Part shown: piece after piece, positions 1,029 to 60,787 of the stretch
How positions within the stretch are numbered: position 1 is the stretch's first letter
How the letters are laid out: every line of letters begins with the position of its first letter
NCBI GenBank assembly: GCA_947644195.1
Contig: CANRZB010000007.1
Coordinates: 7,107 to 71,106 of the forward strand
Length of the DNA: 64,000 nucleotides
Direction: 5' to 3'
Origin: an uncultured Clostridium sp.
Lineage (GTDB): Bacteria > Bacillota > Clostridia > Lachnospirales > Lachnospiraceae
The notes under the pieces: generated by a model
Databases searched by the model: none
What the model was told of the DNA's origin: nothing
Seen by the model: the letters and a program-made list of their open reading frames with translations, nothing else
Program-made: the position numbers and the translations under genes

Positions 1029-1724
1029 ATGAAGAGAAATTATAGTTGTAGGCTAGAACGATATTTGAGCCTGGTCTGTATTTTGGCAGTTGCAGTGTCC
1101 CTGATGATGTCAGGTGAAAGGGTGCAGGCGAAAACGTTCAAAAAAGGGTTTACCTACCAAAAACTGCCCGCCCATATCAGGAAAAAGATTACCGGGGTTT
1201 CCTATCGAAAGAACCGCCATATCAAGTATCGGGATTTGCGTTATGTCAAGGTTAGATACTATGATTTTGACGGAGTGGTTCAGGAGGGGGAATTGATCGT
1301 GAACAAGAAAATTGCGGACAAAACGGTACGAATTTTCTATGAGTTATACAAGATCAAATATCCGATAGAACGGATTGCCCTGGTAGACGAATATGGAGCA
1401 GATGATGAAAAATCCATGCGTGCCAATAATTCTTCTGCCTTTAATTACCGCACGGTGGCAGGGACCAGCCGATTGTCGAAACATGCCCTGGGAATGGCGA
1501 TTGATATTAACCCACGGATCAATCCTTATATTAACCGTCAGGGAATTCTTACGCCAGCCAATGCAAAGATTTATCGGAACCGTGATGAAAAAAAGTGTAA
1601 AGGGAAATATGCATCCCATATGATCCAGCCGGATAGTAAAATAACAAAGATATTTAAAAAGTACGGTTTTACCTGGGGTGGAGATTGGAAATACAGCAAA
1701 GATTACCAGCATTTCCAGATGTAA
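1029..1724 (+). CDS. Secreted M15 family Zn peptidase (D-Ala-D-Ala carboxypeptidase / endolysin-like)
   Basis: SKHALGMAID (SxHxxGxAxD) and DYQH motifs, hydrophobic N-terminal signal segment, GAGG RBS before the ATG at 1029. Confidence 0.85.
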   Translation: MKRNYSCRLERYLSLVCILAVAVSLMMSGERVQAKTFKKGFTYQKLPAHIRKKITGVSYRKNRHIKYRDLRYVKVRYYDFDGVVQEGELIVNKKIADKTVRIFYELYKIKYPIERIALVDEYGADDEKSMRANNSSAFNYRTVAGTSRLSKHALGMAIDINPRINPYINRQGILTPANAKIYRNRDEKKCKGKYASHMIQPDSKITKIFKKYGFTWGGDWKYSKDYQHFQM

Positions 1725-1740
1725 GATCGGGAACATAAAA

Positions 1741-1782
1741 ATCCTCTGAACTCTTGATTTGATATTCAAAAGTTCAGAGGAT
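1741..1782. terminator. Probable bidirectional terminator between the M15 gene and tRNA-Trp
   Basis: Perfect 12-bp inverted repeat ATCCTCTGAACT / AGTTCAGAGGAT between convergent genes. Confidence 0.6.
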
Positions 1783-1792
1783 TTGTCAGTAA

Positions 1793-1863
1793 CAGGGGCA
1801 CCAGGAATCGAACCCGGCTCTGGAGTTTTGGAGACTCTTATTCTACCGATGAACTATGCCCCT
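1793..1863 (-). tRNA. trnW: tRNA-Trp (CCA), no encoded 3' CCA
   Basis: Reverse strand folds as a cloverleaf: acceptor AGGGGCA/TGCCCCT, D-arm GTTC/GAAT, anticodon loop CTCCAAA, T-loop TTCGATT. Pair 27-43 is an A-C mismatch. Confidence 0.95.
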
Positions 1864-1964
1864 ATGCAATTATGTTATGCTTGTGAAAACATACTCACAA
1901 GCGACTAGATTAGTATACATTACTATGATACAGATGTCAAGAATTTTTTATCACTGCTTCTTTC

Positions 1965-2567
1965 TTATTCGGTTTCGTATTCAAAGATATATTTTTCATA
2001 GCCATTAATTACTGTCGTGTGTTCGAGGAAATTACATTCCCGTGGCAGTTTATGATTATAATTCAGGTGCATATGGCCATGCAGGAAATACTTAGGCTGA
2101 TATTTATATAATAGCCTGCGGAATACTTTGAATCCCATATGAGGCAGGTCGTTACCGTCATTGAGCTGGTAGGCAGGTGCATGGGTTACCAGTATGTCAA
2201 AGCCCCCATGGAACAGGAGCTTTGGCAGTAGTTTCCGGACACGGCGTGTCATTTGTTTCTCAGTGTACTGGATTGTACCATAATTATACTGCATGCAGCC
2301 ACCCAGCCCCAGGATTCGTATGCCATTATATTCATAGATCGTATCATCAATGCAGATACAGCCTTCCGGTGGTGTATCAATATAACATTCGTCATGGTTG
2401 CCATGGACATACAGAACAGGTGCTTTGGTGTAGGTTGCAATGAAGGACAGGTAATGAGGTTTCAGGTCGCCGCAGGAGATTACCAGATCAATGCCGTCAA
2501 AACGGCCTTCCTCATAAAAGTCCCATAAGTATTTTGATTCCACATCTGCCAGTACAAGTATCTTCAT
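1965..2567 (-). CDS. Calcineurin-like metallophosphoesterase
   Basis: Motifs LADVES, SCGDL, HGNHD, VTHAP, HGHMH. ATGA overlap with the upstream gene. Confidence 0.9.
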   Translation of the reverse strand: MKILVLADVESKYLWDFYEEGRFDGIDLVISCGDLKPHYLSFIATYTKAPVLYVHGNHDECYIDTPPEGCICIDDTIYEYNGIRILGLGGCMQYNYGTIQYTEKQMTRRVRKLLPKLLFHGGFDILVTHAPAYQLNDGNDLPHMGFKVFRRLLYKYQPKYFLHGHMHLNYNHKLPRECNFLEHTTVINGYEKYIFEYETE

Positions 2568-4504
2568 AGTAGGGAGGTTCCTTTCTGTTCCGGTGTAGCG
2601 GTATCCAGTCCACGCAGTTCCACGACTGGTTTCGCCGAATCTTTCAGTTCCTCTAGAGTCGGTATTCGTCCCACTACGTTTTCGGCCAGCCAGTTCATGG
2701 TTAGGATATCTTCTGGATACAGTACATCCGTATCAGAAATCCGTTCGATGCTGTTCTGATCGGCAATCGGGCCCACAAAGGGATGAAAAATGCCCTGTTT
2801 GATCAAATTTTTGATCAGCCGTACCAGTTTTTTGGTCTCTGCAGGTATCCGTTTGGAACAAAATACATCAATGACGCCAGCGGATAATCCCCACCAGTAG
2901 TTCATGGCCTTGCTTTCTCCGGCAACTTCTTCCGTCGGCAGGGTTCCTTGAATGATACTATTGACCAAACGCTCGTAAAATACTCCCCAGTTATAAATTG
3001 GCATTGCCAAATTGGTTTTTTCGCCATCATGTATCGAGTACAACCCATAGTTTTTGGTATTTCCATGCGGTGCTACCATTTCCTGTGCCGAGATATAATT
3101 GATCTGTTCGTTCCAAAAGAGCTGCTCGGCGTCTGTCAGCTTTAAGGTGGACCAGGATAGATATATTTTGGCATAAGGATTTACCATTTTGGCGCCCAAT
3201 GCAAAAGCGTTTATGCTGGCGGTCATGCCGTAGATCGGATAATCTGCAATATAGCCAATTTTGTTATTTTCGCACATAGCGCCAGCGATTATGCCCGTCA
3301 GGAATTTGGCTTCATACAGACGGGTGTAATAAGTACGCACCGTGTTATGTGGAGAATTTGGTGCACAGTTTAGGAATTTAACCTGTGGGTGTGCGGTTGC
3401 TGCTTTTAAGCTTGCTTTAATCAGCTGTGGTGTGGCGGTAAATATGATGTCATATTTCTCTTTACAGATCTGTTCTAATAATTCCTCTGCCTTGGTTTCT
3501 GTATCTTCCGCCAGGAATGATTTGGTTTCCACAGCGTCCCCTAATACGCTGTCCAGGTGCAGACGGCCCAATTCGTGGCCATAGATCCAGTCGGACGCTT
3601 TCGGATCTTTGTCATAGACAAACGCTATTTTTTTCTTGGCCGGGATAATTTTATTAATTACGGATTTAACGACATTTGTACTCTCCTTGGGATCCATTAC
3701 CAGCTCAACGGTATCTTCCCCGGTCAGCAAAATAATTTCCGGCCAGATTTTGTCCAGATGCTTCTTGATCTGTGCCATCGTCAGTTCTTTTGCTTCGCTG
3801 TAGGAATAGAGGGAGAGATAAAAGAGTAACGCATCTCCGCAAGTGATATTTTCCAGTTTCAGTCCACCCTTTTCCTTGTAGGCTTTGTAAAAGATAGAAT
3901 GGAAGGAGGAAAAGTCCAGCCGTTCCACATCGGTCCATTTCTGTGTTTTATCCTTGCCGGTCGCTTTCAGCAGTTTTTCATAGCTGCCCAGCTTAGAAAA
4001 CTGAACATAACTGATTTTAGTCAAGTCATAAAAATCCATAAATTCATAGTAAATCTGTATCTCCAAATCATCACTTTTCTTTGGAACTTTTCGGATGACT
4101 TCGGCAACGACCGTCGGAGAATCCAGGTATTTTAATACACTGACACGTTTATTGCCCTCAATGACATAGTATTTGTTAAGATATTCATATACTTTGATGG
4201 CATCCCGGATTCCTTCCTCCACCTGCGCATCCTGCAGAACAGACCATTTGTTGGCAAATTCGCTGCCAAAATCCAGCAGTGGCATAAAATTAGAGGCAAA
4301 CGCATTGGTTCTGCCGGCTGTGCTGGTACCGATGACCTGATATAAACGGATATCCATGATGCCAAGATTGATTTCACATTCGGTATCGGTTAAGGACAAG
4401 ATATCATCCAAAACCGGGAGATAAGGATACAGGCCTTTGGCAATATTCTTTTTAAATGCTTTTTGTCCTGCTTTTTGTGCTTTCAAATATTCTTCGTAAG
4501 CCAT
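2564..4504 (-). CDS. Fusion of an N-terminal ParB/Srx-like domain and a C-terminal BMP/PnrA-type ligand-binding domain, apparently cytoplasmic
   Basis: N-terminal YYVIEGNKRVSV matches the ParB/Srx GxxR motif. The C-terminal half has BMP-family motifs (YTRLYEAKFLTGIIAG, IGYIADYP, INAFALGA). No signal peptide or lipobox. Confidence 0.7.
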   Translation of the reverse strand: MAYEEYLKAQKAGQKAFKKNIAKGLYPYLPVLDDILSLTDTECEINLGIMDIRLYQVIGTSTAGRTNAFASNFMPLLDFGSEFANKWSVLQDAQVEEGIRDAIKVYEYLNKYYVIEGNKRVSVLKYLDSPTVVAEVIRKVPKKSDDLEIQIYYEFMDFYDLTKISYVQFSKLGSYEKLLKATGKDKTQKWTDVERLDFSSFHSIFYKAYKEKGGLKLENITCGDALLFYLSLYSYSEAKELTMAQIKKHLDKIWPEIILLTGEDTVELVMDPKESTNVVKSVINKIIPAKKKIAFVYDKDPKASDWIYGHELGRLHLDSVLGDAVETKSFLAEDTETKAEELLEQICKEKYDIIFTATPQLIKASLKAATAHPQVKFLNCAPNSPHNTVRTYYTRLYEAKFLTGIIAGAMCENNKIGYIADYPIYGMTASINAFALGAKMVNPYAKIYLSWSTLKLTDAEQLFWNEQINYISAQEMVAPHGNTKNYGLYSIHDGEKTNLAMPIYNWGVFYERLVNSIIQGTLPTEEVAGESKAMNYWWGLSAGVIDVFCSKRIPAETKKLVRLIKNLIKQGIFHPFVGPIADQNSIERISDTDVLYPEDILTMNWLAENVVGRIPTLEELKDSAKPVVELRGLDTATPEQKGTSLL

Positions 4505-5055
4505 GTATTTCTCCTTTCTATTCTTTCAAATTTTGTTATGTAGCGTTATTTAGAGCAAAGGGTTATATTCATTTACCCAGTGCCGAAAAAAGGGAAACCC
4601 TGCAAATTTTCATTGCCTATCATACCATAAAGTGTGTTGGAAATGTCATCTATTTTTGTCAATTTTTCTCTTAGTTTTTGGCAAAAATGACTAGTACAGT
4701 GGCGATTAAGTTTTTGATGCGTTCTCGCAGGATGATTGTATTGGATACAAGGAGGAAAATGGATAGTTTAGTGGGTGCTACAACTAGATTTTCCGACGCA
4801 GTCGATGAACAATGGAACAAGCGAAACTGTCAGTGCTTTCGTATTCTTTGTGCCAGGTCTACGATGGATGAATGAGTATCATTCTATAGAGAAGTATGGT
4901 ATACTGGGGTTATCTCTAAATTACAGATTGCATGAAAAAGGAAGTAAGTGATAAGATAGATCTGGACAGCGATACAGACAGAATGATTCATTGTGGCAAC
5001 GGTATTTAGATATTTTGTAAAAGATTATGGATCGGAAAGCAAGAAATAGGACAGG

Positions 5056-6011: not shown

Positions 6012-9000
6012 ATGAGACAATTTGATTACAATTTGATTAAGGATCCGCAAATATTTGAACAGAACCGTCTGCCGGCGCATGCGGAGCTGTCTTCGTGTTA
6101 CCGAGGGATGGGGAAGACCTCTCCTTCCGGGAAGGAAGCGGAGCTGTCGGAATCCATTCGTTTTCTTTCTTTGGATGGCGAATGGAACTTTTCGTATGCA
6201 GAAAATTATGCGCAGTCCATTCGAGGATTTGAAGCGATGGAATTTGATTGCCATGGTTGGGCAGAGATCCATGTTCCGGGACACATTCAATTACAGGGAT
6301 ACGATATACCGCATTATACGAATACGGCTTATCCCTGGGATGGCAAGGAAGATGTGGCGTTAGGCGAGGTGCCGGAGCGATTTAATCCGGTGGCAGAATA
6401 TGTAAAATATTTCGATCTGCCAAAAGAATATGTGGGACAGGAATTACGCATCTCATTCCAGGGAGTGGAGAGTGGTGCTGCAGTATGGTTGAATGGAAAT
6501 TACGTAGGATATTTCGAGAATAGTTTTGACCCAAGTGAATTTGATATCACAGAATATGTTCGTCCGGGCGAGAATAAACTGGCGGTACAGGTTTTTAAGT
6601 GGACGTCCGGCAGTTGGTGTGAGGACCAGGACTTTTTCCGTTTTTCCGGGATCTACCGTTCTGTCTATGTGTATATTGTGCCGGAGCTGCATTTGGAAGA
6701 TCTGACGGTGCGGACATTGCTGGACGATACCTATCGAGATGCTGTTTTGTCCCTGGAACTGCGGACAAATCGGGAGAATGGCACGGCGGTCGTTTCTCTA
6801 TGGGATTTTGATACTACGAGTGTAGAATCGCAAGCTATTCTGGAAGCGGAACAATCTCTCTCGGAAGGGAAACCTATGACCTTTGAGGTAAAGGAACCCA
6901 AACTGTGGAGTGCGGAACACCCGAATCTGTATTTATTGCGGATAGAATTGAGGAATGAGTCGGGGGAACGGATCGAGGAAACGACGCAGTTGGTGGGATT
7001 TCGGCGTTTTGAGATCCGGGATCATATGATGTGTCTCAATGGAAAGCGAATTGTATTTAACGGGGTAAACCGTCATGAATTTAGTGCCCATACAGGAAGG
7101 GCGGTGTCAGATGAGGAGATTTTACAGGATATCTGTACTATGAAGCAGAATAATATCAACGCAGTTCGTACCAGCCATTATCCCGATGATGTGAGAATTT
7201 ATGACTTGTGTGACCGCTATGGAATCTATCTGTTGGCAGAAAATAATATGGAGACTCATGGAACCTGGAATAGAGCAGAGGCAAAGAATAATCCGGAATT
7301 GATTATTCCGGGCGACAAGGAGATCTGGGAACCGATGCTGCTTGATCGTGTCAATTCTTGCTACCAGCGAGATAAGAACCATCCTTCTATCCTGATCTGG
7401 TCCTGTGGAAATGAATCCTATGGAGGAAAAGTAATCTGGCATATGGCAGAGTTATTCCGTCGTCTTGACCCAGATCGACTGGTACATTATGAAGGGATTT
7501 TTCAGGACCGAAGATATCCGGATACCTCGGATATGGAGAGCCAGATGTATCCTCCGGTAGAGAAGATCAAAGAGTTTTTGGAACATGACCGGAGTAAACC
7601 ATTTATTTGCTGTGAATACTCCCATGCAATGGGAAATTCCTGTGGGGCAATGCACAAATATACGGATCTGGCGAAAACGGAACCTAGTTACCAGGGGGGA
7701 TTTATTTGGGATTATATTGACCAGTCATTAGATGCCGTTGACCGCTATGGAAATCCGTATCAGGCTTATGGGGGAGATTTCGGTGATCGTCCGTCGGATG
7801 GGATTTTTAGCGGAAATGGAATTGTGTATGGGGGAGACCGCACCCCGTCTCCCAAAATGCAGGAGGTGAAATTTAATTATCAGAACATTTGTGTGAAAAT
7901 GGACGAACATTCCATTTGGGTAAGCAATCAATTTCTATTTACGGATATCAGGGAATTTCAGTGTGAGGTATCTCTGTACCGTGATGGCGTATTGCAGCAG
8001 AGGGTATCGTTAGAAACAGCAGTGCCTCCTTTGGAGCAGAGAGAGTATTCCATGCCGGAGTGGGACCGAGAGATTGCTGGGGAATACTATGTGATCGTGT
8101 CTTTTCAGATGCGGGAAGATACACTTTGGTGTCAGCAAGGGCATGAGGTGGCTTTCGGACAATTTGTCTATCCAGACAAAACCGGAGGTGAAATGAGCTG
8201 GATGCAGAGAATTTCAGCGCCAACGGAAGCAAAATTTTCTGATATTAAGGTGATTCGGGGGTTTCAAAATCTGGGTGTACGGGGAGATGGCTTTGAAATT
8301 CTGTTCTCAGATTGGGAGGGGGGCCCTATCTCCTGCAAATATGAGGGCAGAGAATATCTGAGTATTGTGCCGATGCCGAATTTCTGGCGGGCGCCAACGT
8401 CCAATGACTATGGCTGCCGGATGGAACAGAGGTATGCACAGTGGAAGATCGCCAGCCTCTATCGGTATCATCGGACGCAGGAATTCTGGGAAAAGGGAGG
8501 CTCCGAAAAGATTCAGACAGAGAATTTATTCCAGACCTCTTATACCTATCATATGGCTACGGAGCCGGCTAGTTCCTGTAACGTGACTTATACCGTATAT
8601 CGGGATGGTAGGATTCGGGTTCGTTTGTCCTATGATCCGGTTCCAGAACTGGGAGATATGCCGGAATTTGGCATGATGTTTATACTGGATGCGGCTTTGG
8701 ATCAAGTGGAGTGGTATGGTCTTGGGCCGGAGGAAACCTATGCCGACCGCAAACATGGTGGGAAATTGGGGATTTATCGGAACCGTGTCACAGACAATAT
8801 GGCAAAATATCTGATGCCGCAGGAATGTGGAAATAAAGAAGGAGTGCGGTATCTAAAAGTCACAGATGCAGAAGGGAAGGGCCTGATGGTCAGCGGAGAC
8901 AGCTTGAGTGTATCAGTTCTGCCCTATACGCCCCATGAGTTGGAATATGCTAACCATAGCTATGAGCTGCCGCCGGTTCATCATACGGTGCTGCGGGTAG

Positions 9001-9195: not shown

Positions 9196-10158
9196 ATGGA
9201 GAATACGATGGAGATGATAGAAGTGGCAGGAAAGGCTGCCCGGATACAAAATAATATTGCCAGAGTAATTATTGGGAAAGATCAGGTCATTCGCCAGATG
9301 CTTGCCGCTCTGTTAGCGGGTGGACATGTTCTGGTAGAGGATACGCCAGGAACGGGAAAAACCATGCTGTCCAAGGCTTTGGCAGCATCCATGGACGCTG
9401 GTTTTGGCAGGATTCAGTTTACACCGGATCTGTTACCGGCGGATGTGACCGGCTTAAATGTTTACAACCAGAAGACGATGACATTTGATTTTACGCCGGG
9501 ACCGGTGTTTACTAATATCCTCCTGGCGGATGAGATTAACCGGGCGACGCCGAGGACGCAGTCCAGTTTATTGGAATGTATGGAAGAAAAACAGGTCACG
9601 GTAGACGGAGAAACGAGAAAATTGGCCGAGCCATTTTTCCTGATTGCCACACAGAACCCGGTGGAGACAGCCGGCACCTATCCTCTGCCGGAAGCGCAGA
9701 TGGATCGGTTTGCGATGCAGTTATCCATGGGTTATCCAACGATGGAGGAAGAATTGAAAATTATGGACCGCTATATCAACGACAATCCTCTGGAGGAATT
9801 AAAGCCGGTCTGTACGTCGGCAGAGGTGATAGAAATGCGGGATGCGTGCAGACAGGTATTTGTGCATGACTGCGTGAGAAAATATATGGCACAGATCATC
9901 CAGGCAACCAGGGAACACAGCTCGTTATCTATTGGGGTCAATCCTCGGGGAACACTGGCGTATCTTCGTTGTGTGCAGGCATATGCGGCAATCCAGGGCA
10001 GGGAGTATGTGACGCCGGACGATGTCAAGGCGCTGTGTGTCCCGGTATTGGCACATCGGTTATTATCCTACGCAACTAATCAGAGTGGGGCAGTACAGAA
10101 TATCCTGGAGGAAATTATGGGTAGGATTCCGGTGCCGACAGAAGATTGGAGCAAATAA
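9196..10158 (+). CDS. MoxR family AAA+ ATPase
   Basis: EDTPGTGKT, RIQFTPDLLPAD, LADEINRATPRTQSSLLE, ATQNP, PLPEAQMDRF. Confidence 0.95.
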   Translation: MENTMEMIEVAGKAARIQNNIARVIIGKDQVIRQMLAALLAGGHVLVEDTPGTGKTMLSKALAASMDAGFGRIQFTPDLLPADVTGLNVYNQKTMTFDFTPGPVFTNILLADEINRATPRTQSSLLECMEEKQVTVDGETRKLAEPFFLIATQNPVETAGTYPLPEAQMDRFAMQLSMGYPTMEEELKIMDRYINDNPLEELKPVCTSAEVIEMRDACRQVFVHDCVRKYMAQIIQATREHSSLSIGVNPRGTLAYLRCVQAYAAIQGREYVTPDDVKALCVPVLAHRLLSYATNQSGAVQNILEEIMGRIPVPTEDWSK

Positions 10159-10191
10159 CGGCAGCCTCGGATGGGCAGAAGGGAAGGAAGC

Positions 10192-11298
10192 ATGGAGTTT
10201 GTTTTGGTGGTAATATTGGTTTGTCTGTTATATGGAATACAACACCGGTATTTCAGGAAACATTGGAACCGGGAACTGCATGTGGATCTGAACTTTCTGA
10301 GTAGGGGCATCAATGCGGGGGAGAACTGTAGGCTGGAGGAAGTGATTACCAATGGGAAACGTATGCCGTTGCCTGCATTACAGGTAAAATTCCGCACCGA
10401 TGCATCCTTTCGTTTTCATGAGGATGGAAATTCCGTCACGACGGATTATTATTACCGCCAGGATTTATTTTCGGTGGGAGGCAGGCAGAGGGTTACTTGC
10501 TGTCTGAAGTTTTGTGCCAGGCAGAGAGGTTTCTTTCAAATCACAGAGGTGGATATCCTGGTTAAAAATTTCTTTTTTACCGCACAATATTCTATCCGTC
10601 AGTCAAATGAAACGGCACTCTATGTCTACCCCTACAAACGGGATACCAAATCATTTGATTTTCTATATCGTCAGATGATGGGGGAGATCATTGCAAAGCG
10701 GAGAATAGAAGAAGATCCGTTTGCGTTTCGGGGAATCCGGGAGTATCACAGATCCGATCCGATGCGCCGAATTAATTGGAAAAGTTCTGCCAGAAATGGA
10801 TCTCTGCTGGTTAATAGTTTTGAATCCACAGCAACGCAGACCGTATGTGTCCTGTTAGATGGACAGACGCAGTCGGTCTATGCCCGGAAGAAGATGCAGG
10901 AGATGGGGATTTCTATGGCGTCTTCCATTGCAGGAAAGCTTCTGCAAACGGGAATACCCGTATCATTGTATTCCAATGCCAGGGATATTTTGACCGGGGA
11001 ACTGGTAAAGATAGAGCCGGGATCCCACCGCAGGCATCTGGAAACCATTGACCGGGGGCTGGCGCGTATTGATCTGGATCAGCCGATGGCGCCATTTGCG
11101 GAATTAATACATAATACCGTTGCCCTGGAAGATGATGGAAAATGTTATCTGATCGTTACCTCAGACGACAGGCCATCATTGCGGGAGGAATTTTTACGGC
11201 AGCGAAAGAATATGACAGAAATCTATGGGATGATTCTTTGCGAATCTATGGAACAGTGGGAACCATTCGAAGGGTTCTATCCATGGGAGGCAGAGTGA
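10192..11298 (+). CDS. DUF58 domain protein (MoxR partner)
   Basis: FRGIREYHRSDPMRRINWKSSAR DUF58 motif, N-terminal TM helix, directly downstream of MoxR. Confidence 0.85.
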   Translation: MEFVLVVILVCLLYGIQHRYFRKHWNRELHVDLNFLSRGINAGENCRLEEVITNGKRMPLPALQVKFRTDASFRFHEDGNSVTTDYYYRQDLFSVGGRQRVTCCLKFCARQRGFFQITEVDILVKNFFFTAQYSIRQSNETALYVYPYKRDTKSFDFLYRQMMGEIIAKRRIEEDPFAFRGIREYHRSDPMRRINWKSSARNGSLLVNSFESTATQTVCVLLDGQTQSVYARKKMQEMGISMASSIAGKLLQTGIPVSLYSNARDILTGELVKIEPGSHRRHLETIDRGLARIDLDQPMAPFAELIHNTVALEDDGKCYLIVTSDDRPSLREEFLRQRKNMTEIYGMILCESMEQWEPFEGFYPWEAE

Positions 11299-17056: not shown

Positions 17057-18137
17057 GGATAGGATAGCAGGGAATACGCAAACTACCGCGCAAGGGATAG
17101 CGTTGATAGACCAATTGGAGAGGGAACATTGCCTGAATCGGGAGGAAATGGCATATTTAATTGCTTCCCAATGCCCGGAATTGCAGGATTATGCTCAGAA
17201 GAAAGCCAGAGCGGTTTGCGATAGCCGATATGGAAAAAGAATATTTATCCGGGGACTGATTGAATTTACAAATTATTGCAGGAACGACTGTTATTATTGT
17301 GGAATTCGCAGAAGCAATGCCTGTGCAGAGCGCTATCGCTTGCAGGAGGAAGATATTTTAGCTTGTTGTCGGGAAGGGGAACGACTGGGTTTCCGTACCT
17401 TTGTCCTGCAGGGGGGCGAAGATCCTTACTACACCGATGAGCGTATGGTTTCTCTGATTCGGCAGATCCGGCAGGAGCACCCGGACTGTGCGATCACGTT
17501 ATCTCTGGGGGAACGGGAAAGAAGTAGTTATGAGCGGCTTTGGGAAGCTGGGGCTGACCGTTATCTGCTGCGTCATGAGACAGCTGTAGAATCTCATTAC
17601 CGAAAACTGCATCCTCAGGAATTGTCTTTGGAACATCGGAAGCAATGTCTGAGAGACTTAAAAGAGATTGGCTTCCAGACCGGATGTGGTTTTATGGTGG
17701 GCAGTCCAGGACAGACCGCAGAATATTTGGCGGAAGATTTTTGGTTTATTCACGAATTGCAGCCGGAAATGGTAGGGATCGGTCCCTTTATTCCGCATCA
17801 GGATACCCCGTTTGCCGGGGAGGAACCGGGAGGTTTGGAGCAGACCCTGTATCTGTTAAGTCTGTTGCGTATTCAGCAGCCGGATGTGTTATTGCCGTCT
17901 ACCACTGCACTGGCAACCATTCATCCGCAGGGACGGGAGAGGGGAATTTTGGCGGGTGCGAATGTAGTCATGCCAAATCTTTCCCCTATGGGAGTGCGGG
18001 AAAAGTATTTGCTGTACGATGGCAAGAAAAGTGTAGGAGGGGAGTCTGCAGAAGGTCTTAGTGAGTTAAAGAAACGGATGGAGAAGTTGGGATACCAGGT
18101 CGTGGTTGACAGGGGAGACCATTGTAGTTTAAGCTAG
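17028..18137 (+). CDS. hydE: [FeFe]-hydrogenase maturase HydE-like radical SAM protein (start uncertain)
   Basis: RGLIEFTNYCRNDCYYCG (CxxxCxxC), YLLRHET, GIGPFIPH, ANVVMPNLSP, YLLYDGK. Confidence 0.85.
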   Translation: MERLSEKCCRDRIAGNTQTTAQGIALIDQLEREHCLNREEMAYLIASQCPELQDYAQKKARAVCDSRYGKRIFIRGLIEFTNYCRNDCYYCGIRRSNACAERYRLQEEDILACCREGERLGFRTFVLQGGEDPYYTDERMVSLIRQIRQEHPDCAITLSLGERERSSYERLWEAGADRYLLRHETAVESHYRKLHPQELSLEHRKQCLRDLKEIGFQTGCGFMVGSPGQTAEYLAEDFWFIHELQPEMVGIGPFIPHQDTPFAGEEPGGLEQTLYLLSLLRIQQPDVLLPSTTALATIHPQGRERGILAGANVVMPNLSPMGVREKYLLYDGKKSVGGESAEGLSELKKRMEKLGYQVVVDRGDHCSLS

Positions 18138-18300
18138 TACAACGAATATTAAGTAATTGGCGGTTTGACTTGCCTGTTTTTCCGATAGCACGACTCCCCA
18201 AGCCTCGATGTAGCCACCGCTACACCTGTGTTTGTGAAGCCGCACTCTCAGAAAAACATTCTGTGTCAAACTATCCAAAACTTAATTTTCGTTGTACTAG
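18134..18300. mobile_element. 167-bp MITE-like element, copy 1
   Basis: Terminal inverted repeats CTAGTACAACGAA / TTCGTTGTACTAG (20 of 21 bp match when extended). Near-identical copy at 56802-56968. No ORF. Confidence 0.75.
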
Positions 18301-54934: not shown

Positions 54935-55162
54935 ATGAAAAAATTATTGAAATTTATTGTGGCAATTGCAGCAGCGGCCGGTATTGTGTTAGGGGTACTC
55001 TATGTTCTTCGTGATCGTCTGGGTTTTGATTCCGATGGGGATGATGCAGAGGAAAACGACTTTGACGAAGTATTTGCGGATGAAGTGGATGACCGGGAAT
55101 ATGTCACGCTGGATATTGACCAGGAAGAAGAGCAGGATAGCGAAACGGAAGAAGAGAATTAG
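54935..55162 (+). CDS. Small membrane-anchored acidic hypothetical protein
   Basis: GAGG RBS, N-terminal TM helix, very acidic tail. Confidence 0.75.
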   Translation: MKKLLKFIVAIAAAAGIVLGVLYVLRDRLGFDSDGDDAEENDFDEVFADEVDDREYVTLDIDQEEEQDSETEEEN

Positions 55163-55244
55163 ATCCGACGCTGCTTTTCGCTAATGTACGGGTACATTTT
55201 TTTGTGATAAGAGTGTCAGTACACTAGGAATTTATTGTTTTTTT

Positions 55245-55291
55245 AACAGGGCATCAGAAGGGATGGTTTTTTCTGGTGTCCTGTTTTTTTT
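55245..55291. terminator. Intrinsic terminator
   Basis: AACAGGGCATCAGAA / TTCTGGTGTCCTGTT followed by a T-run. Confidence 0.7.
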
Positions 55292-55359
55292 CGTTTGTAG
55301 ATGGGATAGATGTTGATCATGGATAAAAGATAGGCGGAAACAGGATGCTAAGGATGCGA

Positions 55360-56535
55360 TTAAAAGGAACCATAGATAATTTCTGTAATCTGTTCTGCCC
55401 TTTGCTTCCAGGTATGCTCTGCGGATACTTTTTGATATGCAAGGTCTGTAATTAACTCTGCTTTTTTGTAGTCGGTTAGATGACGATGTATTATCTCGTT
55501 TAAGTGATCTAAATGATTATAATCAATGAACAAAATTTCCTTGCCGTTATCAAAGATCTTGTCCAGATATTGATTTCGATCAGATATGCAAAGAGTTTTT
55601 GATAACATGGATGAAAAAATTCTTTCATGAGCGCCAGAGTGAAATCCAATGTCTGGGTGAATAGTTATTTTTGCATGGTTTATCAATTCTAAGTTTTCTT
55701 CAAAATTTACGGCTGGATGAAAATGGATATTATCTGCTTTTATCGTACATTTTTCCCAGTCTTGCCCGTATATTTCTACACAGTAATCTTCTCCTGCCAT
55801 AGTTTCTAACAGTCGGTCTCGATAAATCCCACGTATGTAATGATCTACAATATTGCCTATAATGTTGAGCCATTCTGGAAACTCTTCTTGAGTTAATACG
55901 ATTCCAAGATTTTGCAACGCTTTGGAAAAAGCATCTTCTTGTTTTAGTTTGGGATGTGATAATATTTCATTTGCCATAGAAATAGAGATTTTGCTGGCAG
56001 GTTCCGGTGAATCGTGCATTATTTGTAACAATTCATTGCATGGTTTAAAAGTACCTGTAAATAGCACGTCAATCTTACGTTTGTTGTATGCGACAGGTGT
56101 TCCTGTATAGCCTCCACCGTGATAGACTGTGTGGACAGAACGGATGTGAGGATAGTACTTGGAAAGATATTCGCTGTGATAGTTATCAATACATAGGGCA
56201 TGAAAATCATGTAAATTTTCCTTTAATATGGCATGATGATGCATGGGATGATCTACCAGGAAATAATAATAAGGTGCATGGATGTAATCCTGAAGGTATT
56301 TGCCATTTGATAATTTTATATTGCTAATAAAACAATTAAAAGATAGAACAGCATCAAATGACTCATCGCTTAGTTGAAAAATCCGTTCTAATGCATTGCT
56401 TTCACCTAAATCAACCACGGTAGTCTGGATGTTCAGTTCCTGAAAAGCAGATAGCAGGTCATTCATGAAATAACGTAAAGTACCATAGGGAGCATTGACT
56501 TGATAGATAAGAAATTTTTTGCATAATTTGTGCAT
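55360..56535 (-). CDS. GT-B glycosyltransferase-like protein (CgeB / Glyco_trans_1_2 type), AT-rich
   Basis: FLVDHPMHH, IDVLFTGT, HERIFSSML, C-terminal EHTWKQRAEQI. A minus-strand TTGACT-N17-TACACT promoter near 56570-56598 favours the start at 56535. Confidence 0.7.
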   Translation of the reverse strand: MHKLCKKFLIYQVNAPYGTLRYFMNDLLSAFQELNIQTTVVDLGESNALERIFQLSDESFDAVLSFNCFISNIKLSNGKYLQDYIHAPYYYFLVDHPMHHHAILKENLHDFHALCIDNYHSEYLSKYYPHIRSVHTVYHGGGYTGTPVAYNKRKIDVLFTGTFKPCNELLQIMHDSPEPASKISISMANEILSHPKLKQEDAFSKALQNLGIVLTQEEFPEWLNIIGNIVDHYIRGIYRDRLLETMAGEDYCVEIYGQDWEKCTIKADNIHFHPAVNFEENLELINHAKITIHPDIGFHSGAHERIFSSMLSKTLCISDRNQYLDKIFDNGKEILFIDYNHLDHLNEIIHRHLTDYKKAELITDLAYQKVSAEHTWKQRAEQITEIIYGSF

Positions 56536-56801
56536 GTGAATTGTGTTTCCCTTCGTTTTCATAGCTTGTAGTGTATAATTTCCAGTGTATAAAGTCAAGT
56601 CGTTTTTCTCTATATGATAATGAAATCTGGATGGAAAGTCAGGAAAATTGATGTTCTTCTGACGAATTGAAGTGAAATGAAATGAATAGTAAATAGAATA
56701 GATAAAGTATTGTCAGTAACCTTGGATTTTGCTAAGATATTATAAATAATAAAGAGTAATGTAGAACAACAGTAGGCAGGCAAAGATATTTGCAGGACAT
56801 G

Positions 56802-56968
56802 CTAGTACAACGAATATTGAGTAATTGGCGGTTTGGCTTGCCTGTTTTTCCGATAGCACGACTCCCCAAGCCTCGATGTAGCCACCGCTACACCTGTGTT
56901 TGTGAAGCCGCACTCTCAGAAAAACATTTTGCGTCAAACTATCCAAAACTTATTTTTCGTTGTACTAG
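56802..56968. mobile_element. 167-bp MITE-like element, copy 2
   Basis: Same length, orientation and CTAG-bounded inverted repeats as 18134-18300, with only a few substitutions. Confidence 0.75.
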
Positions 56969-57052
56969 ATTATAGTTGAGTAATAAGTTGTCCTTATAAG
57001 AGAGTAAGTGTAAATAACCATGAATATAATATGTTTAAAGGAGTGGTATCAT

Positions 57053-57505
57053 ATGATTGATATATATACAGAAAAAAAACAATCAACTGATTGGATTCTT
57101 CAAAATGATTTATATTTTAATTTAAATACAGGAAATGAAGAAATGTCTGAAAATGAAATAAAAATCATTCAGCAAGTGGATCAGGCAAAACTGACACCAG
57201 ATAAGCACATTGAAACAAAATATGGATTAGGTACAATTCGTAATTTGTCATCGGGATGCAAAACGTTACTTAATATTGTAAAGCATCCTGATAAAGTGGT
57301 GTGTGTAGAGGAATGTGGTCCAAATGTACTTGAAATTATTTTTACGATGGATAATATAAAGATATATATGTCACGTCCTACGCTTACAGAGATTCCAGAC
57401 GATGCAGAAATCAGATTTAATGATGCTGATGTGGTAACTGGAAATTCTGGGTACAATACTTGGTGGGGTAAAGAGTATGAAAGGAGAGAAGCAAATGATA
57501 TATAA
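57053..57505 (+). CDS. DUF4869-like protein with an ABC-signature-like motif
   Basis: AAAGGAG RBS. LSSGCKTLLNIVKHPDKVVCVEEC. The family name is from recall, not a search. Confidence 0.65.
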   Translation: MIDIYTEKKQSTDWILQNDLYFNLNTGNEEMSENEIKIIQQVDQAKLTPDKHIETKYGLGTIRNLSSGCKTLLNIVKHPDKVVCVEECGPNVLEIIFTMDNIKIYMSRPTLTEIPDDAEIRFNDADVVTGNSGYNTWWGKEYERREANDI

Positions 57506-57896
57506 GAACATCGCATTTAAAGCAGATCCATTTTCATATGATTTAGCGTTCAATGATAGAATAACTCTTGTTGGTGGAGACAGTGGTACAGGTAAAACAG
57601 TTCTTTATGGAATGTTGGAAGACCTAAGGCTTACCGACGAATATAAAGGGATAAAATTGTTTAATTACAAATCAGATAATCTTTTAGAGTCGATGAAAAA
57701 GTGTAGAGATAATTTTATTGTGATTGATAATGCGGATATTTTAATGGATGATGATATCAGAAGATTCATCAATTTTGAATTTTCCAATCAATATATGCTT
57801 TTTTTAAGAAATTGTGATGGACTTAACGTATCTGATAAGAGTTTTAAAGTGTTGAAGCTTGTTAATAACAAAATAACACTGGAAGAGGAGTTGTAA
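57495..57896 (+). CDS. Minimal P-loop (ABC-like) ATPase
   Basis: ITLVGGDSGTGKT Walker A and FIVIDNAD Walker-B-like motif. AAGGAG RBS; overlaps the upstream gene by 11 bp. Confidence 0.7.
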   Translation: MIYKNIAFKADPFSYDLAFNDRITLVGGDSGTGKTVLYGMLEDLRLTDEYKGIKLFNYKSDNLLESMKKCRDNFIVIDNADILMDDDIRRFINFEFSNQYMLFLRNCDGLNVSDKSFKVLKLVNNKITLEEEL

Positions 57897-57897
57897 T

Positions 57898-58575
57898 ATG
57901 AAATATGTGTGGACAGAAGATACGGGCGCAGGACTTCACTTCTGGAAATTGGTTAATCAACTTTTCTTTGAAAATGCACTTGTGGTTGAAAGTAAAGAAA
58001 GTAATCAGGGCATCTTGGATGCACTAACAGTTTTGGAACCTAAAGATAACGATGAGTATTATATTGCTTTTGATTATGTGTTAGACAATCAGGATATTCG
58101 CAATAAGCATCGTTTACTGAAATCAATAGCAGAAAAGTCAAAAGGAAAGATTATAATTTTGGATATAATTTGTTTTGAATATTTAATTCTTTCCTTTGAC
58201 AAGCTGGTAACATGGACAGGCACTGGAAAGGCAGATAAAATCAAGATTCGTGAAGAAGTTTTAGCGGCAATTGAGAATCATAGAATCAACTTGTTAAAGA
58301 TTGATGACGAGAAGACATTACAGTATTTAGCAGGTTTTAAGAGATATTCTACAGAGCGGGTGATGAAAGCATTGGTAGGTGAATTTACGCAAAATGAGAA
58401 ATGGTCTGTTAAAGGTACACTTATGGGAGAATGTTGGTATAAGGATTGTTGTGTATCCAATTTTCCGGATAATTTTAGGTGTGGTAAACCAGAAGTTGGA
58501 GATGGAAGTGAAAAGATGCGGATGCTGATACAGTCAGAGGTTATGTATAAAATGATATCAACTATTATCGGATAA
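57898..58575 (+). CDS. Hypothetical protein, TOPRIM-like (OLD/AriB-type) fold suspected
   Basis: YVWTED, LVVES, YYIAFDYVLD, ICFEYLIL, Cys-rich C-terminus. GAGGAG RBS; starts 1 nt after the upstream stop. Confidence 0.55.
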   Translation: MKYVWTEDTGAGLHFWKLVNQLFFENALVVESKESNQGILDALTVLEPKDNDEYYIAFDYVLDNQDIRNKHRLLKSIAEKSKGKIIILDIICFEYLILSFDKLVTWTGTGKADKIKIREEVLAAIENHRINLLKIDDEKTLQYLAGFKRYSTERVMKALVGEFTQNEKWSVKGTLMGECWYKDCCVSNFPDNFRCGKPEVGDGSEKMRMLIQSEVMYKMISTIIG

Positions 58576-58798
58576 AAGAAAGAGGGAGATATATTGCAAT
58601 TTAGAAAGGGAAAGAGATTTTTGGAGATTAATCATGTCAATAGTATATAGAAGATGAACAAAGAATGATCTGGAAACATTTAATCACCAAAACGACGAAA
58701 ACATAGTTTGCATTTTTTCCAACCCCTATGCTATAATAGCACACGGATCGAAAATAAGTTCGGTTTTTTAAGCAACATGATAGAAATGAGGGAATACA

Positions 58799-60787
58799 GT
58801 GGCAGAGTATACGGGAAAAGAAATCGTCGTTTTAGAGGGATTAGAGGCAGTGCGGATGCGGCCGGGAATGTACATCGGTTCCACCGGGTCTCGTGGGTTG
58901 CATCATCTGATCTGGGAAATTTTAGACAATGCTATAGACGAGCATCTCGCAGGATATTGTGATGAAGTACACATTACCATGCAGCGGGATGGAGGCATTA
59001 GTATAGAAGATAATGGCCGTGGGGTGCCGATCGACCTGCATCCCACACAGAAGATTCCGACGGTACGCGTTGTCTATACGGTACTGCACGCTGGGGGCAA
59101 GTTTGGAAATGGCGCCTACAAAGTATCAGGTGGATTGCACGGCGTTGGATCCTCGGTGGTCAATGCTCTGTCGCGCAGCATGAGTGTGGAAGTCAAGCGG
59201 GATGGGCTGATCTACCATGACGCCTATGCTGATGGAGGAAAACCGATTAGCCCCTTAATCAAAGGCGAACTGGAGGTAATCGGGAAATGCAGGAAATCAG
59301 AGACCGGCACCAAGGTTACCTTCTATCCGGATCCAGAGATCTTTGAAACCGTAACATTCAAGCCTGAGACCGTCAAAAAGAAATTAAAAGAAATCGCATA
59401 TCTCAATAAAAATCTCAAATTAGTTTACTATAATGAAGCGGATGAGGAGGAGCGCACTTATCTGGAAGAGGATGGAATCCGCAGTTTCGTATCTTATATT
59501 AATCGGGAGGCATCCGTTATCCATGACACTCCCATATATGTAGAGGGAAAGAGCGGAGATATTGAAGTAGAAGTGGCTTTTCAATATACGCACAATTTTT
59601 CAGAACAGATCAACGCCTATTGTAACCGGATCAATGTCGCCGACGGCGGTACGTTGGTCACGGGCTTCAAGACGGCATTAACCCGTATCATGAATCAATA
59701 TGCCAGGGAGTTAGGGATTCTCAAAGAAAAAGATGAGAATTTTGACGGAAAGGATATTCGTAACGGTATCGTAGCGATCATTTCCATCAAGCATCCAGAT
59801 CCTCAGTTTGAAGGGCAGACTAAGACGAAACTGGGAAATACGGATGCCAAGGTAGCGGTGGAGGAAGTCTTTAGTGCGGAAATACAGCACTATCTGGATA
59901 AGAATGTAGACATCCTGAAAAATATTCTGGACAATTCCATGAAATCCTATAATGCCCGCAAAGCAAGTGACAAAGCGAGAAATGCTGCATTGAAGCAGCT
60001 TGGGGATATGGATGCCAAAGGCAAGCTGGCGGCATGCACTTCCAAGAAACCGGAAGAGTGTGAAATTTATATTGTCGAGGGGGATTCTGCCGGCGGAACG
60101 GTAAAGACAGCCCGAAACCGTAAGACACAGGCTGTTCTGCCATTACGGGGCAAGATTCTGAATGTAGAGAAAGCCGCGTTAGAAAAAATATTAGTGAACA
60201 ATGAAATAAAATCCATGATCACTGCGTTTGGATGTGGAATCGGGGATGCCTTTGATTTGAGCAAACTGCGCTACGACAAGATTATTATTCTGACCGATGC
60301 CGATGTGGACGGAGCGCATATCAGTACCCTGCTTCTGACATTCTTTTATCGGTTCATGCCGGAGTTGATCTATTCCGGCAAGATCTATCGGGGACTGCCA
60401 CCGTTATATAAAGTGGATTATGAAAAAGCGGCCGGCGCAAAGCCTACGGCGGCAGACGAGGCGGCGCAGGTGCATACCTCCGGGAACAAGAAAAAAGGTA
60501 AAAAGAAATATTCCCGCTATGTGTTCAATGATTTTGAGTTAGAAAAATTCCGCAAAGTGAAGGGGAATAAAATTTTGGGAATACAGCGTTATAAGGGCTT
60601 AGGAGAAATGGATGCGGAGCAGCTCTGGGAGACAACCCTGGATCCCGACAGCCGGATCCTGGCTCAGGTCAGCATCAGCGATACCTTAGAGGCCGATGAT
60701 ATTACCGCCACATTGATGAGCAGCAACGTTCCGCCCCGCCGGGAGTTCATTATGGAAGAGGCAAAATATGCCACGGTTGATATTTAG
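58799..60787 (+). CDS. parE: Type IIA topoisomerase B subunit, probably topoisomerase IV ParE
   Basis: EAVRMRPGMYIG, EILDNAIDE, DNGRG, GGLHGVG, IVEGDSAGG, PLRGKILNV, TDADVDG, RYKGLGEM. Confidence 0.85.
   Translation: MAEYTGKEIVVLEGLEAVRMRPGMYIGSTGSRGLHHLIWEILDNAIDEHLAGYCDEVHITMQRDGGISIEDNGRGVPIDLHPTQKIPTVRVVYTVLHAGGKFGNGAYKVSGGLHGVGSSVVNALSRSMSVEVKRDGLIYHDAYADGGKPISPLIKGELEVIGKCRKSETGTKVTFYPDPEIFETVTFKPETVKKKLKEIAYLNKNLKLVYYNEADEEERTYLEEDGIRSFVSYINREASVIHDTPIYVEGKSGDIEVEVAFQYTHNFSEQINAYCNRINVADGGTLVTGFKTALTRIMNQYARELGILKEKDENFDGKDIRNGIVAIISIKHPDPQFEGQTKTKLGNTDAKVAVEEVFSAEIQHYLDKNVDILKNILDNSMKSYNARKASDKARNAALKQLGDMDAKGKLAACTSKKPEECEIYIVEGDSAGGTVKTARNRKTQAVLPLRGKILNVEKAALEKILVNNEIKSMITAFGCGIGDAFDLSKLRYDKIIILTDADVDGAHISTLLLTFFYRFMPELIYSGKIYRGLPPLYKVDYEKAAGAKPTAADEAAQVHTSGNKKKGKKKYSRYVFNDFELEKFRKVKGNKILGIQRYKGLGEMDAEQLWETTLDPDSRILAQVSISDTLEADDITATLMSSNVPPRREFIMEEAKYATVDI

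Follow-up and report, generated by a model that had tools for sequence, protein, structure and literature searches.

The 64,000-nucleotide (nt) stretch of contig CANRZB010000007.1 that we analysed and call the window (GenBank assembly GCA_947644195.1, contig positions 7,107 to 71,106) comes from an uncultured Clostridium sp. of the Lachnospiraceae, and it contains a cassette of three small genes, designated here g1, g2 and g3, which are the subject of this report. Together they encode 508 amino acids; their open reading frames are all intact and co-directional, and a purine-rich ribosome-binding site (RBS) of the AGGAG type lies 7-9 nt 5' of each start (Table 1). An earlier sequence-only reading of this DNA, made from the letters alone, had described three tightly coupled genes, with an 11-bp overlap, a 1-nt gap and an RBS for each, in an AT-rich block next to parE, and all of this was confirmed: the g2-g3 spacing is 1 nt, the GC content is 0.31-0.35 across ~55250-58750 vs. 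0.42-0.50 on either flank, and 3' of g3 there is a gene for a GyrB/ParE-family subunit, followed by one for a ParC/GyrA-family subunit. Read from the sequence, the 11-nt overlap of g1 with g2 implies translational coupling. No Rfam match was found in 55000-59000, and a promoter/terminator scan detected no terminator 3' of g3, its sole hairpins being two terminator-like ones (56827-56842 and 56877-56892) inside the repeat that precedes g1; given these hairpins, the trio probably has its own promoter within 56969-57052.

Table 1. The g1-g2-g3 cassette and its surroundings (window positions).
Feature	Coordinates	Strand	Remarks
g1	57053-57505	+	150 aa; DUF4869, ABC-ATPase-like pseudo-ATPase (predicted)
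g2	57495-57896	+	133 aa; minimal P-loop ATPase (predicted)
g3	57898-58575	+	225 aa; Toprim-like + helical domain, presumed nuclease effector
g1/g2 overlap ATGATATATAA	57495-57505	+	11 nt, g1 stop vs g2 start
RBS of g1	57037-57043	+	AAAGGAG
RBS of g2	57480-57486	+	AAAGGAG
RBS of g3	57884-57890	+	AGAGGAG
AT-rich insert, pfkA region to parE	55133-58705	n/a	GC profile and comparison with G201; limits approximate
Glyco_trans_1_2 gene, AT-rich	55360-56598	-	upstream of the trio, inside the insert
MITE-like repeat, ~168 bp	~56800-56968		directly 5' of g1; further copy at 18134-18300

The three genes are not an accident of this one contig. Among 185,579 species genomes, 367 contain a relative of g2, as do hundreds of metagenome contigs, and a six-frame search for g3 relatives across 200 genera of Lachnospiraceae found them in 16, with both partner genes present wherever the DNA was complete. 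We then compared a sample of loci drawn from 80 of the 367 species genomes with a g2 relative and from 80 metagenome contigs, all retrieved via g2, so that g1 and g3 could be compared on equal terms. Two types of cassette emerged, namely type A, with the order g1-g2-g3 of the window and at least 65% identity, and type B, with the order g3-g1-g2 and only ~30% identity. Among the loci in which all three positions could be judged, the trio is complete in 56 of 74 of type A and in 46 of ~63 of type B. Gene g2 always lies directly 3' of g1, with the 11-nt overlap in 147 of 148 loci of both types, while the g2-g3 gap of type A measures 1 nt in 67 of 72 loci and the g3/g1 overlap of type B measures 4 nt in 43 of 46. 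The trio is therefore conserved together, and since the gene order changes while the g1-g2 adjacency stays, their functional linkage is well supported. The median ratios of nonsynonymous to synonymous substitution (dN/dS) of the window genes against their type A homologues are 0.09 for g1, 0.07 for g2 and 0.16 for g3; these are real, selected, translationally coupled genes under purifying selection.

The losses are distributed unevenly over the three genes. A truncated g3 next to an intact g1 and g2 occurs in 14 of the 74 type A loci and in 10 of the ~63 type B loci, and only g1 is damaged in 2-3 loci; such a preferential decay of g3 would be the pattern expected of a toxic effector. Examples of cassette decay are also found in one locus (L008, G165:C48) and in the protein P0367, where the N-terminal part of g1 runs into the C-terminal part of g3 with the loss of g2, the g1 remnant of L008 extending to about residue 119. 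One Lachnospiraceae metagenome-assembled genome carries both cassettes as neighbouring paralogues, a type A and, 1.1 kb further on, a type B (L043:5559-9491), ~35% identical to each other.

The product of g1 belongs to the Pfam family DUF4869 (PF16163), which it matches with 30.7 bits and E 3.1e-7 against a gathering cut-off of 28.9, and its type B homologue likewise exceeds this cut-off with 30.8 bits; the g1 profile also matches a canonical DUF4869 member with 92% probability (E 5.7e-7). The motif columns of all three proteins were taken from alignments of 52-64 homologues, reaching down to ~26-35% identity. In g1, where the segment LSSGCKTLLNIVKHPDKVVCVEEC is present, they comprise a loop resembling the signature motif of ATP-binding cassette (ABC) proteins, LSxGCKT (L65-T71), and a D-loop-like ECGxN (E87-N91), which in canonical DUF4869 proteins read LSGGVKT and ACGDN, together with the further invariant motifs NDxxF, D43 and WW. 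The AlphaFold2 model of g1, built on a 57-sequence alignment, has a mean predicted local distance difference test (pLDDT) of 92.6 and a predicted template modelling (pTM) score of 0.87, and it places LSSG (65-68) at the N-terminus of a helix (67-77), followed by a five-residue loop containing Pro, a strand (82-84, VVCV), E87-C-G-x-N, a helix (90-96), a strand (102-105) and two C-terminal strands. In the model, this is the order of the signature, Walker B, D-loop and H-loop strand of an ABC domain, and when the model is compared by Foldseek with the Protein Data Bank (PDB), ABC ATPase domains, each a weak match, take ~33 of the top 35 places; retron and Septu PtuA-type ATPases are among them, as are CFTR NBD1, MRP2, CydDC and McjD. 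A profile comparison with the C-terminal halves of 30 ABC domains of the same genome pairs LSxGCKT...ECGxNAL with LSGG...DEPTxxLD, though not significantly. What g1 and its homologues do not have is the Walker A phosphate-binding loop (P-loop, GxxxxGK[ST]), and g1 therefore appears to be a pseudo-ATPase.

A search of the own genome with the g1 profile matched no ABC protein, and the NCBIfam, PHROGs and PDB sequence-profile searches gave no useful match for g1. We also considered whether the GCKT of g1 could be a decayed Walker A, given that the top local hhalign match paired it with a P-loop, at only 0.3% probability. This was rejected, because canonical DUF4869 proteins have LSGG at this place and the loop, in the model, heads a helix that runs into the Walker-B-like strand, and the structural matches spanning whole ABC domains contradict it as well. 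Neither was a natural fusion of g1 with g2 found; the only locus where the two are in frame (L193) is a pseudogene interrupted by stop codons.

Gene g2 appears to encode a minimal P-loop ATPase. Its Walker A lies at G28-T35 (GGDSGTGKT), its Walker B at V76-I-D78-N79-A-D81 (IVIDN), and a strand, N98-Q99-YMLFL-R105, occupies the H-loop position; invariant columns are G28, S30, G33 and K34, then V76, D78, N79, A80 and D81, and then N98, Q99, Y100 and R105. The ABC signature motif is absent from g2 throughout the homologue alignment, and with a Walker B that reads D-N as well, g2 is not a full one-chain ABC ATPase. Several results nonetheless point to the ABC clade as its place among the P-loop proteins, as far as profiles can tell. 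The strands before the P-loop, together with the P-loop itself, match the ABC domains of the own genome with 94% probability in hhalign. When all ORFs of this genome were searched with the g2 profile (hmmsearch), the best match was an AAA_21-like ABC ATPase, aligned with g2 at the P-loop and again at the H-loop strand ~150 residues further, and 7 of the top 10 matches were ABC ATPases. The PADLOC matches of g2 are the N-terminal heads of LmuB, GajA, AriA, PtuA, PbeC and mad8, and the type B g2 reaches E 2e-7 with LmuB and E 5e-4, over the P-loop region, with AriA. The sequence-profile search of the PDB returned only generic P-loop matches for g2, and NCBIfam and PHROGs no useful one.

The third protein is the candidate effector. 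It has the motifs WTED, VVES, IAFDYVLD and FEYL and four invariant cysteines, and its AlphaFold2 model (64-sequence alignment; pLDDT 85, pTM 0.81) consists of a strand (2-6), a helix, a strand (29-32), a helix, a strand (53-59), a helix and a strand (85-90), followed by a helical domain. Acidic residues lie at or near the strand ends, E7/D8 after strand 1, where the four-stranded parallel sheet of Toprim domains has its conserved Glu, D59 at the end of strand 3 with D63/N64 four residues on, and E94 after strand 4, while the helical domain contributes E153 and the four-cysteine cluster C179, C184, C185 and C195, in a region (~165-200) modelled at a pLDDT of 60-65. Of the 81 sequences compared, g3 homologues together with the fused relatives described below, 80-81 retain E7, D8, D59, E94 and E153. 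In Foldseek, the first three PDB matches (6njw, 6njv and 6nk8) are to class 2 OLD nucleases, over their C-terminal Toprim and helical portion, the remaining ones being receiver or Rossmann-like folds, and the best match of the model in BFVD is an RloB-like protein (E 0.03). Among the 64 g3 homologues scanned singly, 5 gave a weak DUF4435 match (PF14491; best E 0.0044), which the g3 of the window did not, and one matched the PADLOC model of AbiLii (E 0.013). The g3 of the window itself had no match in Pfam, including the Toprim families, PADLOC or NCBIfam, no useful one in PHROGs, and only noise in the PDB by sequence. Each of these signals is weak, and they agree in placing g3 near the Toprim proteins of the OLD, RloB and DUF4435 branch; on its modelled fold we take g3 as a Toprim-like, presumed nuclease effector.

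Further light is shed on the trio by a family of fused proteins of ~320 aa that are encoded beside canonical DUF4869, 17 of which we aligned for profile comparison. In hhalign, residues 13-134 of the fused proteins, their N half, align with the g2 profile at 97.8% probability and E 1e-12, over Walker A, Walker B (FIDEg in the fused proteins vs. VIDNAD in g2) and the NY-VIVTRE strand, and the g3 profile matches their C half (161-300) with 93.9% probability and E 1.6e-7, while g1 has no match in them. Because both g2 and g3 thus find their counterparts in the two halves, the trio can be regarded as a three-gene version of the DUF4869/fused pair, and from these profiles the ATPase and nuclease-like parts would be on separate genes in the trio and joined in what appears to be the commoner, two-gene form, frequent in gut anaerobes. 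The fused relatives show the OLD domain order, an ATPase core and then a Toprim-like part. Compared with an alignment of a few DUF4435 proteins, their C half scores 60% probability (E 9e-5) by itself and 36% (E 4e-4) when merged with g3, the latter match covering all four strands. Like g2, they have no signature motif of their own, and would thus still need DUF4869 for one. The two forms have in common their three homologous parts, the tight coupling, the mobility and the proneness to decay, and they differ in that the fused ATPase has D-E where g2 has D-N, in that canonical DUF4869 has LSGG and ACG where g1 has LSxGC and ECG, and in the four-cysteine cluster, which is restricted to the three-gene clade and is not in the fused family. 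At the position of the catalytic Glu, therefore, the two clades are reversed: the three-gene clade has an invariant Glu in g1 (E87, 57311-57313) and Asn in g2 (N79, 57729-57731), and the two-gene clade has Ala in DUF4869 and Glu in the ATPase. In a standard head-to-tail dimer, E87 of g1 would not reach an ATP held by g2.

Most of what the sequence-only reading had said about the individual proteins has held up. The motifs it had quoted from g1, g2 and g3 are all present, and being invariant columns of the homologue alignments, they are not there by chance. It had likened g1 to the signature-to-Walker-B segment of ABC proteins, and the model suggests an ABC-like fold with no P-loop; it had seen in g2 a Walker A and a strand at the H-loop position with no signature motif, and hhalign and PADLOC place this protein with ABC-type N-termini; and it had given g3 the strand order of TOPRIM, with which the modelled topology agrees, acidic residues ending strands 1 and 3 and the best, if weak, matches being OLD- and RloB-like. 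Its proposal of an ATPase split over two small proteins needs rewording. The two parts are ABC-like and complementary, but they are not one domain cut in two: since g1 and g2 both keep Walker-B-like, H-loop-like and C-terminal strands, they look like two complementary degenerate ABC-like domains.

Among the systems that have been described, PARIS invites comparison; it consists of the ABC ATPase AriA and the DUF4435/Toprim nuclease AriB, was proposed as class 4 of OLD, and is defence-associated and abortive-infection-like. Its ABC-type ATPase and its Toprim nuclease are encoded by adjacent genes, as are their putative counterparts in the trio, and it has fused single-gene relatives as well (PMC10568477). 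AriA, however, is full-size (~55 kDa), has a signature motif itself and contains an inserted coiled coil, whereas the trio would divide its ATPase between a 133-aa core and a P-loop-less protein of 150 aa. The only trio matches to PARIS are weak (the type B g2 to AriA, E 5e-4, and 5 of 64 g3 homologues to DUF4435) and all fall short of the curated cut-offs, and in the window g3 has no DUF4435 and g2 no AriA match, which leaves the trio outside PARIS. The OLD proteins, comprising class 1 (P2 Old and the Thermus scotoductus OLD), class 2 (GajA of Gabija) and class 3 (the effector of retron Eco8), follow the same ATPase-then-Toprim logic; in them, one chain of ~500-600 aa carries both a complete ABC domain and a Toprim motif of the DxD form, whereas the trio has three chains, a separate pseudo-ATPase partner, DxxxD and no catalytic Glu in its P-loop subunit. 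With three separate genes, it falls outside the OLD family too, and only its fused relatives join an ATPase core to a Toprim-like part. AbiL (AbiLi/AbiLii) and RloAB are likewise two-gene systems of an ABC ATPase and a small Toprim-like protein, and the AbiLii model superimposes on the OLD entry 6NJV (PMC13064643), which is also among the matches of g3. In contrast with the trio, AbiLi and RloA are full-length ATPases, and no DUF4869-like third component accompanies them; AbiLii was matched by only 1 of 64 g3 homologues (E 0.013) and AbiLi by none of the trio proteins. Judged by the models of those systems, the trio would be OLD/PARIS/AbiL-like in its logic and a member of none of them. We found no mention of DUF4869 or PF16163 in the literature searched. 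The sequence-only reading knew of no described function for the trio; g1 does belong to a named Pfam family.

The cassette is mobile among many Lachnospiraceae genera, often among restriction, SIR2 and toxin genes. In a genome of the same genus (G201), the pfk region and parE are only 109 bp apart, with bases 1334-4905 of the query missing, and the corresponding ~3.6 kb of the window (~55133-58705) is therefore an insert; in another genome of the genus (G202) the site is occupied instead by 9 kb of envelope genes (YfhO, Big_2/PIG-L, DUF6020), and a third (G203) has a g1-like stretch on a different contig. In general, the pfk-parE interval differs from genome to genome in this genus, with rearrangements in G207 and G209. 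The g2 sequences from Lachnospira, Roseburia, Blautia, Coprococcus, Oribacterium, Anaerostipes, Eubacterium and other genera share 79-92% identity, while the parE genes of the one genus reach only 68-83% at the DNA level, and from this discrepancy we conclude that the cassette spreads horizontally. Prophage origin was rejected, because relatives occur in only 4 of 2.9 million viral contigs. The repeat 5' of g1, which resembles a miniature inverted-repeat transposable element (MITE), has near-identical copies on at least 4 other contigs of the same genome, and ~7 copies at 86-88% identity in G209.

None of the flanking genes of the window accompanies the trio at other loci, Glyco_trans_1_2 included, and this upstream glycosyltransferase was rejected as a part of the system since it is unlinked to the trio in every other locus. 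The Waltera-like genomes have the trio 3' of guaA, in the company of an ADP-ribosyltransferase-family gene, HicB, DUF2971, SLFN_AlbA_2, SIR2_2 and type I restriction genes, and once (L109) within an integrase/Mob_Pre mobilisable element; in Lachnospira pectinoschiza it stands among a type I HsdR, DUF3800, a 1009-aa SIR2_2 protein and a 922-aa PHP/AAA_21 protein. Within 40 nt 3' of type B cassettes, there often follow genes for a PLDc_2 protein of 229 aa and a CxxCxxCC protein of 168 aa (L233-L239), and other type B contigs have a 999-aa AEP-TOTE/DEAD/PLDc_2 protein and Fic downstream. In the Waltera-like lineage, a 211-aa ADPrib_exo_Tox gene follows 64 nt after g3 in 10 of 10 places, whatever the flanks (L100-L109, bases 9587-10222); it is absent from the window, and in those genomes it may either accompany the cassette on its travels or be its fourth component.

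Putting these observations together, the interpretation to which we give somewhat better than even weight, arguing by analogy, is that the trio is a mobile, ATP-gated nuclease conflict module, likeliest of anti-phage or abortive-infection-like function, built in the style of OLD, PARIS and AbiL in miniature and out of three proteins. In this proposal, g2, having a P-loop and no signature, and g1, having a signature-like loop and a D-loop and no P-loop, would pair as an asymmetric ABC-like heterodimer. Arranged head to tail, they would hold one composite ATP site made of the Walker A and Walker B of g2 and the LSxG loop of g1, a single site being proposed because g1 keeps the trans elements without a P-loop and g2 the cis elements without a signature. 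Substitutions of Glu by Gln at the catalytic Glu trap ABC dimers with ATP bound, and the Asn of g2 can be likened to these; since it replaces the catalytic Glu, we favour for g1-g2 the role of an ATP-binding switch rather than that of a fast ATPase or motor. The switch would restrain g3, the putative Toprim-like, metal-dependent nuclease with its Cys4 cluster, until an infection trigger, or a changed nucleotide state or pool, frees or activates it, and the freed g3 would then cut DNA or tRNA, so that the growth of the infected cell stops. PARIS, Gabija and P2 Old provide the analogues for a switch that restrains a nuclease until a cue arrives (PMC11464382, PMC10781630, PMC10568477). It is from such analogy that we infer the g1-g2 contact, the ATP gating, the nuclease activity, the target and the defence role, and the composite ATP site, with its specific geometry, is a less certain proposal than the reading as a whole.

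Several findings weigh against this proposal. No single fold or profile match for g1 or g3 is statistically strong: ABC domains and OLD Toprim regions do lead the Foldseek lists, but every match is weak, with E 0.08-2.5 and TM scores of 0.28-0.38 for g1 against ABC domains, and E 5e-3 to 7e-3 and TM 0.30-0.37 (probability 0.90-0.94) for g3 against the OLD regions. The alignment of g1 with the C-terminal ABC halves is in the expected register yet non-significant, at 0.3% probability, and g3 alone reaches only 0.9% against the DUF4435 alignment, the 36% given above requiring its merger with the fused family. The acidic motif of g3 is the DxxxD of D59...D63 and not the DxD of Toprim, g2 has no catalytic Glu, its Walker B being D-N instead of D-E, and Pfam cannot class g2, with AAA_22, AAA_14, nSTAND and ABC_tran all below their cut-offs. 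As to the suspected defence function, restriction, SIR2_2 and similar genes do neighbour the cassette elsewhere, but this context is qualitative, drawn from several species, and not an enrichment statistic; in the window the neighbours of the trio are housekeeping and envelope genes with no defence gene among them, and neither PADLOC (version 2.0) nor NCBIfam nor PHROG includes a model for the system.

Three other explanations have to be weighed. The nearest of them is really a variant of the ATP-gated module, in which g1 would be a sensor, adaptor or decoy pseudo-ATPase that binds a phage protein or caps g2, with g2 working as a homodimer or a monomer. The presence of Walker-B-like and H-loop-like strands in both proteins means that g1 could mimic a partner of g2, and its invariant surface motifs NDxxF, D43 and WW are not explained by the ATP-site idea; the elements conserved throughout DUF4869, on the other hand, are precisely those that ABC dimers use in trans, namely the LSxG/LSGG loop and the D-loop-like CGxN, g2 and the fused relatives have no signature motif of their own, and the conserved translational coupling points to a stoichiometric complex, for which reasons we consider this variant unlikely. 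A repair, recombination or element-maintenance module similar to RecF/RecR, in which g3 would be a non-cutting DNA-binding protein and the small ATPase its loader, seems to us very improbable. It is established that RecR unites a Toprim domain with a four-cysteine zinc finger and works with the ABC-type ATPase RecF (Aravind et al. 1998, as cited in PMC10568477), and g3 likewise unites a Toprim-like domain with four invariant cysteines. The cassette, however, is distributed patchily (16 of 200 genera, 367 of 185,579 species genomes), clearly spreads horizontally, decays often and lies in defence islands elsewhere, all of which speaks against such a role, as does the intact acidic constellation of g3, which is typical of catalytic Toprim domains, and no RecR or RecF profile match appeared among the searches of the trio proteins.

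A cassette that is small, tightly coupled, AT-rich and horizontally mobile, and that preferentially loses its putative effector g3, would also suit a toxin-antitoxin-like addiction module that stabilises mobile islands, g3 being the toxin and g1-g2 its neutraliser, with no role against phages, and the HicB neighbours and the occasional mobilisable element with integrase and Mob_Pre (L109) can be cited in favour of it. Most copies, however, are chromosomal with no recognisable mobile backbone, they are repeatedly adjacent to restriction, SIR2 and Schlafen-like genes, and the ATPase-plus-Toprim pairs that have been tested, namely PARIS, AbiL, Gabija and Old, are phage defences (PMC10568477, PMC13064643). 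We regard an addiction role without defence as quite unlikely, keeping in mind that addiction and defence roles are mutually compatible.

Beyond the ATP-gated conflict module as such, there is a bolder version of it, which we put forward only tentatively and by analogy, namely that the trio may be the smallest known ABC-type switch, hydrolysis-poor and made of a P-loop-only and a signature-only subunit that form one composite ATP site and gate a Cys4 Toprim nuclease, and that it may represent a distinct OLD-like class of immunity, widespread among the Firmicutes of the gut and with a trigger and a target of its own. If the interpretation is wrong, the trio is still a conserved, mobile and selected three-gene operon. 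If it is right, the ATPase-plus-Toprim immune module would prove to be reducible and divisible to a great extent, with the ATP sandwich that otherwise takes two full ABC domains being made by a 133-aa core and a 150-aa pseudo-ATPase, and these 508 residues would offer a tractable system for how ATP binding gates a toxic nuclease. In that case, a function would also be assigned to DUF4869 in Pfam, and a common, unannotated defence candidate would be added to the pan-immune system of the gut Lachnospiraceae.

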